Source of the DNA: a virus
Lineage: Duplodnaviria > Heunggongvirae > Uroviricota > Caudoviricetes
Virus record (IMG/VR): IMGVR_UViG_2778261506_000008
Coordinates: 1 to 5,797 of that record
Length of the DNA: 5,797 bases
Direction: 5' to 3' (one strand)
Positions within the stretch are counted from its first letter, which is position 1. Every line of letters begins with the position of its first letter. The position numbers and the translations under genes were made by a program. The notes below the pieces were generated by a model. The model was not told where the DNA came from. It saw only the letters and a program-made list of their open reading frames with translations, and did not search any database. Below, in pieces: positions 1-5,758 of the stretch.

Positions 1-438
1 AGGCCGCAGTCGGTAACCTCGCGCATACAGCCGGGCAGTGACGTCATCGTCTGCGCGGAAATGGACGAACAGTGGGGCTATGTCGGGGCTAAATCGCGCC
101 AGCGCTGGCTGTTTTACGCGTATGACAGGCTCCGGAAGACGGTTGTTGCGCACGTATTCGGTGAACGCACTATGGCGACGCTGGGGCGTCTTATGAGGCT
201 GCTGTCACCCTTTGACGTGGTGATATGGATGACGGATGGCTGGCCGCTGTATGAATCCCGCCTGAAGGGAAAGCTGCACGTAATCAGCAAGCGATATACG
301 CAGCGAATTGAGCGGCATAACCTGAATCTGAGGCAGCACCTGGCACGGCTGGGACGGAAGTCGCTGTCGTTCTCAAAATCGGTGGAGCTGCATGACAAAG
401 TCATCGGGCATTATCTGAACATAAAACACTATCAATAA
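1..438 (+). CDS. insB: IS1 transposase InsB (5'-partial, frame open to window start; stop TAA 436-438)
   Basis: Translation (…[42 protein letters not shown]…[15 protein letters not shown]) is near-identical to IS1 InsB from memory. Two residues differ from the canonical copy I recall (Arg for Ser in YDRLRK and in LMRLLSP), suggesting an iso-IS1 variant. Confidence 0.9.
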
Positions 439-453
439 GTTGGAGTCATTACC
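431..453. repeat. IS1 right terminal inverted repeat
   Basis: Terminal ~23 bp matches the IS1 inverted-repeat end (complement reads GGTAATGACTCCAACTTATTGAT). Confidence 0.75.
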
Positions 454-480
454 CTGGAGCCGGACAGCAAAGACGGCCAG

Positions 481-1521
481 ATGGTGGCGCTGGTTGCGCT
501 GGCTATTCACGATGCCAATAACACGGCCATTACTGTTTACAACTGCTTCTCACCTGCTACGGGTTACGGCGCAGCGCTGACCAGTAACGTGAAAATTAAC
601 GGTATCGCGCGCAAAGGGGCGACGAACTCCACTGTGGATCTGCTGCTCACCGGCACTGCAGGGACAACTATCACGAACGGTACCGTTAAAGACACTAATA
701 ACGTGATCTGGCGTCTTCCTGCCTCAGTAGTGATTGGCGTTGACGGTACGGTTACGGCCACTGCCACTTGCTCAAACAGCGGCGCTGTCGCAGCGCTGGC
801 GGGGACAATTACTACCATCAACACACCGACTCGAGGCTGGACATCGGTAACCAACCCGGCGGCGGCCACCGTAGGCGCACCAGCAGAAACCGACGCAGAG
901 CTGCGCATCAGGCAGGGGCAGAGCGTCGCGCTACCCTCTATCACGCCGTTTGAGGGCGTTGACGGTGCGATTGCTAACGTTGCTGGCGTGACACGTCACA
1001 AGCTCTACGAAAATGATACTGGCGCGACCGATAGTAACGGGCTGCCGCCACACTCTATCTCAGCCATCGTGGACGGCGGGGACGTGACCGACATTGCCCA
1101 GACTATCCGGGGTAATAAAGGGCAGGGAACGGCGACCTACGGTACGACCTCTGTCACGGTACCGGACACTTACGGCAACCCACACGTGATCAGTTTTTCG
1201 CGTTCGACTGATGTTCCGATTTACGGGCATATCACACTGAAAGCCTTTACGGGCTACACGTCGCAAATTGGCGTGCAGATTCAGCAGGCCGTCGCGGATT
1301 ACATCAACGGGCTGACGATCGGTGATTCGGTTCTGCTGAGCCGCATATACTCCCCGGCGAACCTCGGCGTGGTGAGTGGTGGCAGTGCAAGCTATTACGA
1401 CATTCAGGAGCTGCTGATTGGCAAATCTGCCGGAACGGTAGCGGCGGCGAATATCAATATCGCCTACAACGAATCAGCGTCCTGTAAGCCGGAAAATATT
1501 GTTCTAACGGTGACGTCATGA
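481..1521 (+). CDS. Phage baseplate protein (baseplate J / Mu gp47 / e14 JayE-like), probably 5'-truncated by the IS1 insertion
   Basis: 346-codon ORF rich in Gly/Thr/Ala/Val, typical of a structural protein, sitting first in a coupled tail operon ahead of a tail fibre. The frame is open from the IS1 junction (454) to the first ATG at 481 and there is no Shine-Dalgarno before 481, so the true start probably lay upstream of the IS1. Stop overlaps the next start (ATGA at 1518-1521). Family assignment is from position and composition, not a confirmed domain match. Confidence 0.55.
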   Translation: MVALVALAIHDANNTAITVYNCFSPATGYGAALTSNVKINGIARKGATNSTVDLLLTGTAGTTITNGTVKDTNNVIWRLPASVVIGVDGTVTATATCSNSGAVAALAGTITTINTPTRGWTSVTNPAAATVGAPAETDAELRIRQGQSVALPSITPFEGVDGAIANVAGVTRHKLYENDTGATDSNGLPPHSISAIVDGGDVTDIAQTIRGNKGQGTATYGTTSVTVPDTYGNPHVISFSRSTDVPIYGHITLKAFTGYTSQIGVQIQQAVADYINGLTIGDSVLLSRIYSPANLGVVSGGSASYYDIQELLIGKSAGTVAAANINIAYNESASCKPENIVLTVTS

Positions 1522-2198
1522 GCAAGTACACAGATTTAATCACCAACTACCACGCCACCAGACCGAAATACTTTGATCACATCGACCTGAGCACCCGGCC
1601 GCTGATTGACATCACATCAGCCACCCGGGGGCTGGTTAGCGCATTTGACATTGATACGGCGGTAGGCGTCCAGCTTGATACCCTCGGGCTCTGGATCGGA
1701 CGTAGCCGTATAGTCAGCCAGCCCATTACGGGAGTTTATTTCAGCTGGGACACCGACGGGCTCGGATATGACCAGGGCGTCTGGCAAGGGCCGTATGATC
1801 CGGACTCAGGCTATACGTCGCTGAGCGATGACACCTACCGCATCATTCTGAAAGCAAAAATCGCTATCAACAACTGGGACGGCCGCAACGACTCTCTGCC
1901 GCCCATCCTTGACGCTGCGACTGCAGGCTCTGGCCTGAAGATGCAGATCGTCGACAACCAGGACATGACGATTTCGGTCTGGGTTTTCCCCGAGACTGAT
2001 ATTTCTGATGTGTCACTAGAACTGATCGCCGCTATCAAACAGGGCTATCTCACCGTAAAAGCTGCTGGCGTATGGGCCGGTGATGTGGAAACGCCTTCGG
2101 TAGAAACACCGTCCGAGGGCTCAAAATTCTTTGGTTTTGATATGGATAACGAATACATCGGCGGGTTCGATGTAGGAGCATGGGGGACTTTACTCTAA
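1518..2198 (+). CDS. Phage tail/baseplate protein (position of P2 gpI / Mu gp48 / e14 YmfQ)
   Basis: 226-codon ORF coupled to both neighbours (ATGA overlap at start, TAATG overlap at end) between the baseplate-J-like gene and the tail fibre gene. GGTGA-like SD 4 nt upstream. Function inferred from synteny only. Confidence 0.5.
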   Translation: MSKYTDLITNYHATRPKYFDHIDLSTRPLIDITSATRGLVSAFDIDTAVGVQLDTLGLWIGRSRIVSQPITGVYFSWDTDGLGYDQGVWQGPYDPDSGYTSLSDDTYRIILKAKIAINNWDGRNDSLPPILDAATAGSGLKMQIVDNQDMTISVWVFPETDISDVSLELIAAIKQGYLTVKAAGVWAGDVETPSVETPSEGSKFFGFDMDNEYIGGFDVGAWGTLL

Positions 2199-2959
2199 TG
2201 GCAACAAATAACTTTAAAGCGTTCGCGCTTGATCCTAATGCTAACGTCATGTCACAGGCTGACTGGGAATCGCTTCCGGCGTTGCTGTCCGGGTTTACCG
2301 CTGGTAAAGCATCCAGCGCTCAGGTCAACAAAGCCATTCGCCAGGCGACCACAATTGCCGCGCTGGTGGGGCAGTTTATTGCGAACTCCGGAGTAGATGC
2401 CCTGGACAATGCAGACGTTAACGGGCTGGTGACAAAATTCACGAATGCGCTTACCGCAAATCTCCGTTTGGGAGCTGGTGCTCCAGCTATAGGTATTCCT
2501 TTTTTCTGGCCGTCCTCGGCTATGCCAAATACGGTTATGACAGAATGGGCTGATATGGTATTTCTTAAGTTCAACGGAGCGACGTTCTCAGCGACCGCAT
2601 ACCCTAAATTAGCGCAGGTAATCCCTAGCTTAAAACTCACCGAAGCACGTGGCGAATTCCCACGGATTTGGGATGATGGTCGCGGAGTTGACTCAGGGCG
2701 AACCCTACTTAGCGCTCAAGGGGACGCTATTCGAAATATTACTGGCCAAATTATTGGCGCAAACTATAGAGCATGGCGTGGAGAGCCTACAGGGGTCTTT
2801 TCGTCAGCAGAATTGTCTCCAGGCAGTTCATTAAGTACAGATGGGACATCAAATACCAACGGCAGAGCAACCACTATGGATGTATCTCTTCAGGTCCCTA
2901 CTGCATCTGAAAATCGTCCACGTAACATAGCTTTTAACTTTTTAGTAAGGGCTAAATAA
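2198..2959 (+). CDS. Phage tail fibre protein with tail-collar domain
   Basis: N-terminus MATNNFKAFALDPNANVMSQADWESL is typical of Mu/e14-type side tail fibres. C-terminal half carries the collar signature (…TEARGEFPRIWDDGRGVDSGRTLLSAQGDAIRNITGQI…RPRNIAFNFLVRAK). Start chosen at the ATG overlapping the upstream stop (TAATG); an in-frame ATG at 2180 is an alternative. Confidence 0.8.
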   Translation: MATNNFKAFALDPNANVMSQADWESLPALLSGFTAGKASSAQVNKAIRQATTIAALVGQFIANSGVDALDNADVNGLVTKFTNALTANLRLGAGAPAIGIPFFWPSSAMPNTVMTEWADMVFLKFNGATFSATAYPKLAQVIPSLKLTEARGEFPRIWDDGRGVDSGRTLLSAQGDAIRNITGQIIGANYRAWRGEPTGVFSSAELSPGSSLSTDGTSNTNGRATTMDVSLQVPTASENRPRNIAFNFLVRAK

Positions 2960-3552
2960 TGAAACCAATTTTTGATAAAAATGGCCTGGCTACTGAATCA
3001 GGAAATATTCGCTGTTTTTATTACGATGAAAATACGAATGAATATATTGGTTGGTCAGATGAATATATTAATTTAGGTGTTAGCATGCCCAGTAACTCTA
3101 CCGATATTGAACCGGATCAGGAAGTAGACGGAATGATAGCTGTCTTTGTAAGCGGTGCCTGGAGGTATGAGGAGGATAATCGTGGAGAAATAGTCTACTC
3201 AACTGATACCGGCGAGCCTATGGAAATCGATTATATTGGCAAAGTTCGTGATGGTTTCACAAGAGTCGCCCCTTCAACCCCTTTCGACAGATGGGATGGT
3301 CAACGCTGGGTAATAGATGAAGATGCAAAGCATACTTCTGATGTTGTAAGTGCTGAAAAAGAAAAGGAGTTTAGAATTAATGAGGCTAATGAGTATATTA
3401 ATAGGATGCAATGGCCTGGTAAAGCATCCTTAGGGCGATTGAAAGAGACAGAAAAGGCTGAGTACAATAAATGGATTGATTATTTGGACGAACTTTTTTC
3501 CACGGATACATCAACGGCCCCAATGGTGAACTTCCCAAATAAACCAGAGTAG
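2959..3552 (+). CDS. Tail fibre assembly protein (Tfa chaperone, Caudovirales TAP family)
   Basis: 197-codon ORF starting at a TAATG overlap with the fibre gene, AAGGG SD 7 nt upstream. C-terminus …WIDYLDELFSTDTSTAPMVNFPNKPE resembles the conserved Tfa C-terminal motif (compare …VDTSTAPDIEWP…). Lower GC than the upstream tail genes. Confidence 0.8.
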   Translation: MKPIFDKNGLATESGNIRCFYYDENTNEYIGWSDEYINLGVSMPSNSTDIEPDQEVDGMIAVFVSGAWRYEEDNRGEIVYSTDTGEPMEIDYIGKVRDGFTRVAPSTPFDRWDGQRWVIDEDAKHTSDVVSAEKEKEFRINEANEYINRMQWPGKASLGRLKETEKAEYNKWIDYLDELFSTDTSTAPMVNFPNKPE

Positions 3553-3570
3553 GCATAAGCTATAGTATAA

Positions 3571-3593
3571 AGGGCATATTTGGCATATGCCCT
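3571..3593. terminator. Perfect 9-bp hairpin between the convergent tfa and acyltransferase genes (putative bidirectional terminator)
   Basis: AGGGCATAT-ttggc-ATATGCCCT, located 19 nt after the tfa stop and 14 nt after the acyltransferase stop, with A/T-rich flanks. Confidence 0.4.
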
Positions 3594-3606
3594 AATAAAA
3601 GGATTT

Positions 3607-4569
3607 TTATAAAAACAATGGTCGTTTGTAGACCTTCTTGAAAAGTGTAAGGGAGTACGATAAAGATAATGTGAGAACTATAATGGTAATAAATAACACT
3701 GATTTATTATTTATGCCGATTATGTCAAATATTTTATTTGTCGCTTTGATACAAAAAACATGTGCAAAGAAAATTGCTGTAGCAAAATCAGATAGTTTTT
3801 TTGAGTTTCCAGTCAAGGTTCCGCTTTTTGCAATTAAGAAGAGGATTGTAGATGTTGGTATGGAAAATATGAAAAGATCAATTGGTTTGTTTATTCCAAA
3901 AATCGCCTTGTTAATAATGCTTTCCGAAAGTAAAAGGCATATCGAGATTGCTAAAGTTGCATAAACTATTTTTTTGCTAAATTTCGAGAAAGTCTCAGTT
4001 ATGTTTAATTTATTAAGGAGAAAACCGAAGCATAAAAACGGGAAGCAATCAAATAAAAAATTCCTATATAGAGTTATTTTTATTTGCTCGTTCGTTATAA
4101 TTGTATTTACATATCCTTTGTTTACGATGTATTGAATAATTAATCCTATAAGGTATAGGGATAAGGAAGCAAGTAATAATTTTTCTGGGCGTAAATTTCT
4201 GCATTGCCTCAGAACAAGTGATGCCAGAATTAAACCCGGGATATACCATAATAGATGGTAACCAAAAAGAATGTTTAATAAAATGTCAATACCAGAATTG
4301 TTAGGTATCCAAAAATAAGAATACACGCACATCCAAGTAATATATAAAACGACTAATTTTTTTTGGTTTTTAAAGTATTCATTACTATTGATTGTTTTAT
4401 ATAGATAGTAACCGTTTATTATCAAAAACGTAGGTACTGCTATCCGGAATATTCCGTTGACCAGTAAATAACTCAAATCCATATTAAAAGATGCTAAGAA
4501 CTTCAAATGTAAAAGCATGACAAAAATTGACAGTAGAATTTTTAGTAGATCTAGGGTGATGTTTCTCAT
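3607..4569 (-). CDS. Integral membrane acyltransferase, acyltransferase-3 family (OafA/Oac-like), candidate O-antigen/LPS O-acetyltransferase
   Basis: 320-codon, highly hydrophobic multi-helix protein. Three acyltransferase-3 family motifs are present: N-terminal R-x4-D-x2-K…H (MRNITLDLLKILLSIFVMLLH), the RIAVPTFLIINGYYL block (family R…FF-x-SGF region), and HLLWYIPG (family HLWFL motif). Very AT-rich (by eye under ~30% GC), unlike its flanks. Weak SD. Confidence 0.7.
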   Translation of the reverse strand: MRNITLDLLKILLSIFVMLLHLKFLASFNMDLSYLLVNGIFRIAVPTFLIINGYYLYKTINSNEYFKNQKKLVVLYITWMCVYSYFWIPNNSGIDILLNILFGYHLLWYIPGLILASLVLRQCRNLRPEKLLLASLSLYLIGLIIQYIVNKGYVNTIITNEQIKITLYRNFLFDCFPFLCFGFLLNKLNITETFSKFSKKIVYATLAISICLLLSESIINKAIFGINKPIDLFIFSIPTSTILFLIAKSGTLTGNSKKLSDFATAIFFAHVFCIKATNKIFDIIGINNKSVLFITIIVLTLSLSYSLTLFKKVYKRPLFL

Positions 4570-4857: not shown

Positions 4858-5124
4858 TTACATCGCAACTTGACGCACAGATGGGAGCTCAGACACCAAC
4901 CATATATCGGCCTCTTCAAACATATCCTCAAGCATGCGGTTCAGCTTCTCCCGATCGCTTTTGCTGGCATCGCTATTCAGGCCGTTCGCTTGCATCGGCT
5001 TCACCCTTACTTCGGCATCAGGGAAAATCTGGTGCACTCGTTTCGTCAGCTCTGCCAGGATAATCTCTCTGGCCCCTTCGAGCCCCTCTACATTGCGTTT
5101 GTCATAAACCAGTTCAACGAACAT
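4858..5124 (-). CDS. DinI-family protein (DNA-damage-inducible protein I-like, RecA-filament modulator), prophage-encoded
   Basis: 88-codon ORF; …ILAELTKRVHQIFPDAEVRVKPMQANGLNSDASKSDREKLNRMLEDMFEEADIWLVSE aligns with E. coli DinI from memory (…LAGELSRRIQYAFPDNEGHVSVRYAAANNLSVIGATKEDKQRISEILQETWESADDWFVSE). Strong SD GGAGG 5 nt before the ATG. LexA boxes lie upstream. Confidence 0.85.
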   Translation of the reverse strand: MFVELVYDKRNVEGLEGAREIILAELTKRVHQIFPDAEVRVKPMQANGLNSDASKSDREKLNRMLEDMFEEADIWLVSELPSVRQVAM

Positions 5125-5395: not shown

Positions 5396-5758
5396 TGGTG
5401 GAGCTGGCGGGAGTTGAACCCGCGTCCGAAATTCCTACATCCTCGGTACTACATGCTTAGTCAGTCTTTACATTCGCTTGCCAGCTGCGGACGGACACGC
5501 CACTAACAAACTAGCCTGATTAAGTTTTAACGCTTCAACCCCAGGCAGGACTTCCACGCGATCTCTTTTGGGTTTGACCTCTCTTGATCCCCGTCCTAAG
5601 AGCGGAGGCTAGGGAGAGAGGGCTCTAAGCAGGTTATTAAGCTGCTAAAGCGTAGTTTTCGTCGTTTGCGACTATTTTTTGCGGCTTTTTACGAGGCCAA
5701 CCGCCCCTCGGCATGCACCTTGGGTTTCGCAAATCCCGTCGAATCCAGAATCAGCCCC
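5396..5758 (-). ncRNA. ssrA: tmRNA (SsrA), complete 363-nt mature sequence
   Basis: Reverse complement begins GGGGCTGATTCTGGATTCGACGGG and ends …CCCGCCAGCTCCACCA, and contains the tag template GCAAACGACGAAAACTACGCTTTAGCAGCTTAA (ANDENYALAA). Essentially identical to the E. coli tmRNA I recall. Confidence 0.97.

Follow-up and report, generated by a model that had tools for sequence, protein, structure and literature searches.

The coupled gene pairs closest to those considered here were described in Escherichia coli by Huber et al. (2019, 2023), where stop and start codons overlap in ATGA or TAATG motifs, Shine-Dalgarno (SD) motifs lie inside the upstream gene and the products are subunits of heteromeric assemblies (PMC6728339, PMC10666635). 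Junctions in the -8 to +6 range represent 24% of co-directional E. coli pairs, and coupling collapses when the intergenic gap reaches about 20 nt (PMC6728339, PMC10666635). Among E. coli pairs with such overlaps, four of five tested are strictly coupled and one is not, and 13 of the 14 overlapping pairs tested are strictly coupled (PMC6728339). Moreover, overlaps are enriched among subunits of heteromeric complexes (PMC10666635). On the structural side, the baseplate of the simple myophage Pam3 has a wedge heterotriplex that bears the fibres, and its genes gp22-gp23-gp24 encode in this order a J-like wedge protein, a second wedge subunit and the fibre (PMC9942802). Phages and prophages of the SEN34/ST64B-like type display the order sheath initiator, baseplate J, DUF2612, fibre and tail fibre assembly protein (Tfa), followed by a reverse-strand O-acetyltransferase and then a DinI-like gene.

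The stretch analysed here (the window, 5,797 nt of IMG/VR record IMGVR_UViG_2778261506_000008) shares these properties. It has the gene order of Pam3 gp22-gp24 and that of SEN34/ST64B-like elements, both before and after Tfa, and it carries the motifs, the E. coli host, the SD motifs inside upstream genes and the class of encoded subunits of the Huber et al. pairs, from which its architecture does not differ. Coupling was measured in those pairs and is predicted here from the architecture, and the window copy lacks the upstream operon because of an IS1 element. SEN34 is about 80% identical in nucleotides over J and DUF2612, with overlaps of -4 and -1 at the first two junctions in both. On the other hand, its fibre C-terminus and Tfa belong to another mosaic module, with a fibre of 381 aa and a +2 gap before Tfa, and it carries another acyltransferase; the window copy, by contrast, is truncated by IS1. 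Taken as a whole, we regard it as probable that these are overlapping late tail genes of a SEN34/ST64B-like prophage, coupled by termination-reinitiation, with the fibre gene starting at 2198.

The tail module and its genomic setting

Four co-directional genes of the + strand are joined by three junctions. The baseplate J (gp47-type wedge) gene, truncated at its 5' end, occupies 454..1521 (PF04865, E 2.6e-14; phrog_6, E 1.1e-59), followed by a DUF2612/Phage_Wedge1 baseplate wedge gene at 1518..2198 (226 aa; PF11041, E 6.7e-45; phrog_587, E 3.8e-73), a tail fibre gene at 2198..2959 (253 aa; phrog_3100, E 7.5e-63) and a tail fibre assembly (chaperone) gene at 2959..3552 (197 aa; PF02413 Caudo_TAP, E 6.2e-26; phrog_105, E 1.3e-66). 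These Baseplate_J, DUF2612/Phage_Wedge1, tail fibre PHROG and Caudo_TAP assignments support, as far as comparison of sequences can test it, the proposal of an earlier note, made from the sequence alone, that the cluster is a phage tail morphogenesis module. The genes are syntenic with those of Salmonella phage SEN34 and of related E. coli phages and prophages, for which the deposited annotations place the starts at the same overlaps.

The J product clearly matches solved wedge proteins (9zd7 gp88, 2.7e-30; Pam3 gp22, 5e-8), and the fibre matches the short tail fibre 9cuy (4.6e-14). For the solved baseplates 9zd7 and 7kh1, the chain counts of J-like to DUF2612-like proteins, which neighbouring genes encode, are 12:6; compared with these wedges of two J-like proteins to one second subunit, the sequence similarity of our DUF2612 protein is weak (9zd7 gp89, 9.6e-5; 7kh1 gp17, 0.0085). 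In the fibre gene the N-terminal baseplate-attachment part is conserved and the C-terminal collar/gp53-like part is mosaic.

We place the module at the right end of a SEN34/ST64B-like (Brunovirus-type) prophage inserted at ssrA in E. coli, where it lies distally in the predicted late (tail) operon of this myovirus-type element. The order Baseplate_J, DUF2612/Wedge1, fibre, Caudo_TAP is that of the Brunovirus-type tail module, and SEN34 aligns to positions 440-3600 with 79.7% nucleotide identity over 60% of the span, only the prophage right end being present in the window. The contig begins within an IS1 element, whose 3' part (1..453, + strand) interrupts the J gene. It contains an insB-type ORF at 61-438 (PF03400 DDE_Tnp_IS1, E 1.7e-73), its terminal inverted repeat ends ...GTTGGAGTCATTACC at 453, and homology to the intact, near-identical prophage L145 begins at 454; an intact L145-type prophage is carried by E. 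coli GCA_036603215.1. When mapped onto L145, the J gene is missing 132 nt (44 codons); its relatives have 399 aa, and position 481 holds its first in-frame ATG. The run opens with a 5'-truncated pseudogene cut by IS1, a point that had been overlooked, and the prophage carrying the module is defective. An IS1 insertion in J was sought in complete E. coli genomes; in H16 (LHM10-1) IS1 lies elsewhere and not in J. As IS1 appears to have taken away both the 5' end of J and all that preceded it, the upstream part of the operon is lost from this copy, which leaves the module as a probable silent remnant.

Geometry and conservation of the junctions

Direct reading of the + strand bears out the three overlaps reported earlier. 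At junction A (ATGA, 1518-1521), the ATG of DUF2612 at 1518 overlaps by 4 nt with the end of J, whose stop codon is TGA 1519-1521. At junction B (TAATG, 2196-2200), the DUF2612 stop TAA 2196-2198 shares one nucleotide with the fibre ATG 2198-2200. Similarly, at junction C (TAATG, 2957-2961), the fibre stop TAA 2957-2959 shares one nucleotide with the ATG of the assembly gene at 2959.

We surveyed 142 homologous loci. The -4 overlap of junction A is found in 132 of 136 loci and the -1 overlap of junction B in 124 of 128, counts that are not independent events since many of the loci are closely related. Among 100 distinct junction contexts, all have -4 at junction A and 96 have -1 at junction B. 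Both junctions stay free of indels over a range of 49-100% protein identity. Gaps of 5-17 nt are seen at junction A in distant DUF2612 homologues (26-37% identity). At junction C, -1 or -4 is found in 40 of the 100 contexts and +1 or +2 in 26. TAATG or TGATG is present at every one of the 19 distinct junctions with a Tfa homologous to that of the window, and other fibre/Tfa modules often have gaps of +1 or +2. The overlaps are maintained in evolution, A and B across loci and C among fibre/Tfa modules of its own type but not family-wide. Deposited annotations give, for A, B and C respectively, -4, -1 and +2 in SEN34, -4, -1 and -4 in both vB_EcoM-606R2 and LHM10-1, and -4, -1 and -1 in E. coli DX6. 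Yersinia phage YP3, in which J and DUF2612 are annotated as one long 'tail fiber protein', was left out of the junction counts, the fusion being treated as a frameshift or an annotation artefact.

By themselves the motifs are frequent, the + strand of the window containing 26 ATGA, 8 TAATG and 9 TGATG; what goes beyond chance is that those at the gene boundaries sit where they do and are conserved. The succession of three overlaps, which the earlier note had singled out, is not statistically special. Junctions of -4 or -1 make up 14 of the 54 co-directional junctions of SEN34 (26%), whose replication genes contain another run of three successive -4 overlaps, and 6 of the 15 junctions of the L145 tail module are -1 or -4 (40%). 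With such overlaps at 26-40% of junctions, three in a row are unremarkable, and since consecutive triples are common in these phages, a fact the note had missed, the run carries little information.

Predicted ribosome-binding signals within the upstream genes

Pairing energies were computed against the 16S 3' end GAUCACCUCCUUA. Upstream of junction A, the SD-like GGTGA (1509..1513, + strand; -7.4 kcal/mol) lies in the J codons ACG GTG, 4 nt from ATG 1518, and ACGGTG is near-invariant in 68 distinct homologous junctions while adjacent synonymous sites vary. Upstream of junction B, the last DUF2612 codons contain the SD-like purine run GGGGGA (2182..2187, + strand; -8.4 kcal/mol), at 10-11 nt from ATG 2198, towards the upper limit of functional spacings. 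In 86 distinct sequences, G is invariant at positions -15 and -14 and only purines occupy positions -13 to -11, even though the encoded residue switches between Gly and Glu. Upstream of junction C, the SD-like TAAGGG (2946..2951, + strand; -4.9 kcal/mol) lies 7 nt from ATG 2959 and includes a rare Arg codon of the fibre gene, AGG (2948-2950). This codon is used in 18 of 18 distinct RA[K/A]-stop junctions with an overlapping ATG, against 9.5% of Arg codons elsewhere in these genes, and the invariant AGG is a predicted SD embedded at junction C. The synonymous-site constraint on ACG GTG, on the purine run and on AGG can be ascribed to ribosome-binding signals within coding sequence.

Start of the fibre gene

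Another ATG (2180-2182, + strand) precedes ATG 2198 by 18 nt in the same frame; it is made up of the final base of a GCA (Ala) codon and the first two of a TGG (Trp) codon of DUF2612. From 2198 the predicted fibre N-terminus is (M)ATNNFKAFALDPNANVMSQADWESLPALLSGFTAGK, and from 2180 it would be MGDFTLMATNN... The earlier preference for 2198 stands: its equivalent is ATG in 126 of 128 homologous loci, and homologues do not consistently start at the equivalent of 2180, where the codon is ATG in 106, TTG in 10, GTG in 4 and CTG or absent in 5. In homologues, the latter position falls on the third (wobble) base of an Ala/Ser codon belonging to the upstream gene. Variability of third positions in the fibre frame starts only at +5, right after the 2198-type ATG, and upstream of -18 the codon periodicity is that of the DUF2612 frame. 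Position 1 of the phrog_11303 profile aligns with the Met at 2198, residue 7 of the longer ORF.

Could the fibre nevertheless start at 2180, as a 259-aa protein, or could both codons be used and give two isoforms? The -18 ATG is present in 70 of 86 distinct homologous contexts, above what GCA codon usage alone predicts, the 259-aa form is called on 5 Logan contigs, and the phrog_1396 alignment begins at its residue 1. Against this, at least 5 distinct lineages carry CTG in its place or lack the codon, others carry TTG or GTG, and the 253-aa form is annotated on 39 contigs, NCBI annotations among them, the 2198-type start being that of the NCBI, PGAP and phage annotations, including SEN34, 606R2, DX6 and LHM10-1. 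The AGGAG found at 2174-2178 in the window is only 1 nt upstream of ATG 2180, too close to function, and most relatives have GGCGC instead; at usable spacing, anti-SD pairing for 2180 reaches -2.7 to -4.0 kcal/mol. Across 65 of 65 distinct homologues, pairing is stronger at the 2198-type start (mean -7.9 versus -2.7 kcal/mol), and the six extra residues of the longer form show no codon periodicity in the fibre frame. We therefore consider a start at 2180, alone or shared, very improbable: its codon is an Ala/Ser wobble position, variable or absent, lacking a usable SD, and the fibre start is predicted at 2198.

Coupling or compaction

Termination-reinitiation is the likely mechanism at these junctions. 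At each junction the stop codon of one gene and the start codon of the next have bases in common (ATGA, TAATG, TAATG), so that a ribosome terminating on the upstream gene would already sit on the next start codon, where the SD-like motifs of the last upstream codons may help to hold it. The components of one baseplate wedge-fibre complex would thereby be synthesized in a coupled manner. Overlaps conserved across 49-100% protein identity and accompanied by embedded SD-like motifs are the pattern experimentally tied to coupling in E. coli (PMC6728339, PMC10666635). Coupling through the unfolding of RNA structure is, on the other hand, unsupported, since 70-nt windows at the three junctions fold no more strongly than shuffles (z +0.39, +1.23 and -1.17). 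Within the cluster, 12 promoter-like sites (shuffled 7.2 +/- 2.6) represent no clear excess and 3 terminator-like sites (shuffled 4.3 +/- 2.3) no excess; the only terminator-like match on the + strand, at 2113-2134, was not taken as real, having only 3 G-C pairs and lying inside DUF2612. We infer from the arrangement that the four genes share one transcript and that their translation is coupled.

Alternatively, the overlaps could be a by-product of genome compaction and stop/start drift, each gene being initiated independently at its embedded SD, with no functional coupling. The predicted motifs at 1518 and 2198 could indeed suffice for de novo initiation, in which case the overlap might reflect compaction more than obligatory coupling. 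Junctions of -4 or -1 are the commonest type in general, as the SEN34 and L145 frequencies and the share of the -8 to +6 range in E. coli illustrate, one of five assayed E. coli overlapping pairs is uncoupled, and relatives tolerate small gaps at junction C. Such drift, however, has left no indel at junctions A and B, the great majority of assayed overlapping pairs (13 of 14) are strictly coupled (PMC6728339), and the proteins encoded here are subunits of one complex, the class enriched for overlaps (PMC10666635). We hold compaction without coupling to be unlikely, and termination-reinitiation remains the reading we prefer.

Significance of the arrangement

The three junctions may not be equivalent. 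SD strengths and the rare AGG could be tuned so that reinitiation gives about 2:1 J:Wedge1, the strong SD of 2198 adding de novo initiation for a several-fold excess of fibre. This idea is speculative and we consider it rather doubtful; if true, baseplate stoichiometry would be written into the junctions.

The overlapping arrangement is genuine and relatives share it, but it is an ordinary, already well-known trait of compact phage operons. It adds a further example of conserved stop/start overlaps between genes for subunits of one complex, without new biology. Its chief value is for annotation: the fibre start is fixed at 2198 by sequence comparison, the first gene is recognized as an IS1-truncated pseudogene, and the module is placed in a known type of ssrA prophage.

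Results

The earlier note had placed three consecutive stop/start overlaps in a tail module, and all three are read directly in the window, ATGA at 1518-1521 (junction A), TAATG at 2196-2200 (junction B) and TAATG at 2957-2961 (junction C), as the boundaries between four co-directional ORFs of a mechanical ORF list (481..1521, 1518..2198, 2180/2198..2959 and 2959..3552). The second ORF and the fourth each have the overlapping ATG as their earliest possible start past the upstream in-frame stop; the third has two candidate ATG codons, 2180 and 2198, in one frame and 18 nt apart. Pfam and PHROG scans bear out the tail-module assignment, the genes encoding a baseplate J/gp47-type wedge protein (J, 481-1521; PF04865, phrog_6), a DUF2612 protein, currently named Phage_Wedge1 (1518-2198; PF11041, E 6.7e-45), a tail fibre (2198-2959; phrog_3100 and others) and a tail-fibre assembly protein (Tfa, 2959-3552; PF02413). 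They are preceded by an IS1 transposase fragment (61-438; PF03400) and followed, on the reverse strand, by a low-GC acyltransferase gene (3607-4569; PF01757), a DinI-like gene (4858-5124; PF06183) and the ssrA tmRNA (5396-5758; tag ANDENYALAA).

The window matches the opening 5797 nt of E. coli contig NLVP01000052.1 without a difference and has the same gene order as its closest phages, Salmonella phage SEN34 (Brunovirus), Yersinia phage YP3 and several induced E. coli myophages including vB_EcoM-606R2. The arrangement recurs adjoining ssrA/smpB in E. coli DX6. This gene order and location show that the window contains the right-hand end of a SEN34/ST64B-like prophage inserted at ssrA, the DinI-family gene and the ssrA tmRNA marking the prophage-chromosome boundary. 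Several relatives (L146, L148-L150) carry a tandem P4-like satellite (D5-type primase, AlpA, Ogr/Delta, Psu) that separates DinI from the chromosome at this site. The IS1 element extends to 453, and from 454 onward the sequence is homologous to the intact prophage, with 132 nt (44 codons) of the J gene absent by comparison with the near-identical intact prophage L145 (E. coli GCA_036603215.1, 99.8% identical); the J protein of relatives has 399 aa, and NLVP01000052.1 itself starts within IS1. From the IS1 cut and the missing segment, this operon copy appears to have lost its upstream part. The first reading has to be corrected here, the first gene of the run being an IS1-truncated pseudogene.

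Homologous starts and stops were placed by tblastn and frame walking in 59 genomic and 80 viral loci with a DUF2612 relative, together with annotated loci from phages and E. coli. At junction A, a -4 overlap (4 nt shared by upstream stop and downstream start) is found in 132/136 loci. Three of the four exceptions are distant DUF2612 homologues (26-37% identity) of Firmicutes and Bdellovibrionales (L059, L060 and L062, from Alicyclobacillus, Oscillospiraceae and Bdellovibrionales), with gaps of 5-17 nt and canonical Shine-Dalgarno (SD) sequences, which indicates that the ATGA overlap belongs to the enterobacterial clade and does not characterize the Pfam family as a whole. The fourth is the YP3 record, where J and DUF2612 are fused, probably through a frameshift, a sequencing error or mis-annotation; this record (PV092592.1, 3369-5171) annotates them as a single 600-aa 'tail fiber protein', and its junction sequence deviates (…ACGGTGACTGAGCCAATTATG…). 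Junction B is a -1 overlap in 124/128 loci. Junction C is mixed family-wide because the fibre C-terminus and Tfa are mosaic: among 100 distinct contexts, 40 are -1 or -4, 26 are gaps of +1 or +2, and the remainder are other short gaps or uncallable. Within the window's module type (fibre end ...V-R-A-K/A-stop), TAATG or TGATG is present in 19/19 distinct junctions. Deposited annotations concur, with A at -4 and B at -1 in SEN34, vB_EcoM-606R2, E. coli DX6 and E. coli LHM10-1, and C at +2, -4, -1 and -4, respectively. Across the fibre C-terminus and the Tfa gene (2400-3552), GC falls from ~54% to 33-47%, and the match to different E. coli relatives is interrupted at ~2346, 2473 and 2746, a typical mosaic exchange of the receptor-binding module.

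The choice of 2198 over 2180 as fibre start, also made in the earlier note, holds in the homologues, which do not consistently use the 2180 equivalent, whereas the 2198-equivalent codon is ATG in 126/128 loci. ATG 2180 consists of the wobble base of a DUF2612 Ala codon (GCA) and the TG of an invariant Trp codon. The codon at -18 is ATG in 106 loci, TTG in 10 and GTG in 4, with none in 5 (CTG where the sequence is listed) and start candidates at other offsets in 3 further loci. Of 86 distinct contexts, 70 have A at the wobble position, 7 T, 5 C and 4 G; this A is commoner than GCA usage predicts, for which shared ancestry or preference for a weakly structured A/U-rich initiation region are candidate causes. 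The AGGAG found 1 nt before ATG 2180 in the window, where most relatives have GGCGC, is too near for an SD role. At usable spacing, anti-SD pairing amounts to -2.7 to -4.0 kcal/mol for 2180 versus -8.4 for 2198, and the 2198-type start has the stronger SD in 65/65 distinct homologues (means -7.9 vs -2.7 kcal/mol). Per-position entropy displays DUF2612-frame periodicity upstream of -18 and fibre-frame periodicity that sets in only after the 2198-type ATG. Between these regions, positions -13 to -11 hold purines only, even though the residue alternates between Gly and Glu, so that it is the SD and not a protein extension that seems constrained. The phrog_11303 start corresponds to the Met of 2198, and the exact 253-aa product occurs on 39 contigs, NCBI annotations among them, the 259-aa form on only 5 Logan contigs. 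We thus reject 2180, for its codon variability, weaker SD and lack of fibre-frame periodicity ahead of 2198, and on comparative grounds assign the start to 2198.

SD signals are also embedded in the coding sequences at the two other junctions. At junction A, the codons ACG GTG (GGTGA, 1509-1513; -7.4 kcal/mol against the extended anti-SD) are almost invariant over 68 distinct sequences and flanking synonymous sites vary. At junction C, all 18 distinct overlapping junctions of the window's type have the rare AGG as the Arg codon three codons ahead of the stop (2948-2950); in other parts of these genes AGG represents 9.5% of 1524 Arg codons, and the sole RAG-ending fibre with CGC has no overlapping ATG. 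These SD-motif counts are not phylogenetically independent; invariant SD bases beside variable synonymous sites nevertheless indicate nucleotide-level selection.

Downstream, the acyltransferase gene (3607-4569, reverse strand) is convergent with the Tfa gene and encodes a 320-aa Acyl_transf_3 protein, at 28-30% GC versus ~55% for the baseplate genes. SEN34 has a reverse-strand O-acetyltransferase in this slot, and L145 and L149, with identical fibre and Tfa, a 93-aa ORF. It resembles a swappable cargo gene for lysogenic conversion, possibly acting in O-antigen acetylation. Between the two convergent genes, a 9-bp perfect inverted repeat (3571-3593, AGGGCATAT-TTGGC-ATATGCCCT) may be a bidirectional terminator; the consensus terminator scan made no call there because no T-run follows it.

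Discussion

Stop/start overlaps belong to the textbook picture of phage late operons and prokaryotic operons generally. Among E. coli co-directional pairs, the most frequent spacing is -4, with -1 and -8 next, and the range -8 to +6 comprises 24% of pairs (PMC10666635). In SEN34, 14/54 co-directional junctions are -4 or -1, with another run of three in the replication genes, as are 6/15 in the intact tail module of L145. The run of three is therefore not unusual and, contrary to the first reading, has no statistical weight alone; what backs the gene calls is the conservation of the overlaps in homologues.

Termination-reinitiation coupling at the overlapping codons is the best-supported explanation of the observed architecture, its conservation and the SD signals, and the genes would accordingly be co-transcribed and coupled. 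Huber et al. found strict coupling in 13/14 overlapping pairs tested, including 4/5 E. coli pairs, with an SD contribution that differed among pairs (PMC6728339), and gaps of ~20 nt abolish coupling (PMC10666635). Given the strong SDs at 1518 and 2198, ribosomes could initiate independently there as well as reinitiate; the SD spacing at 2198, 10-11 nt, is near the upper functional limit. RNA around the junctions folds no more strongly than shuffled sequence, and promoter-like and terminator-like sites are in no clear excess over shuffles.

Subunits of heteromeric complexes are enriched in overlaps (PMC10666635), a class that the J, DUF2612 and fibre products fit. J matches solved wedge subunits (9zd7 gp88, 2.7e-30; Pam3 gp22, 5e-8; Mu gp47, 2.4e-4), and DUF2612 has a weak match to the adjacent wedge subunit of two solved baseplates. 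Chain counts are 36:18 across three entries of the 9zd7 group and 12:6 in 7kh1, both 2:1; the Pam3 wedge is a gp22(2)-gp23(1) heterotriplex with trimeric fibres on gp23 (PMC9942802). At the end of the fibre gene, AGG 2948-2950 clearly exemplifies an SD signal limiting synonymous codon choice.
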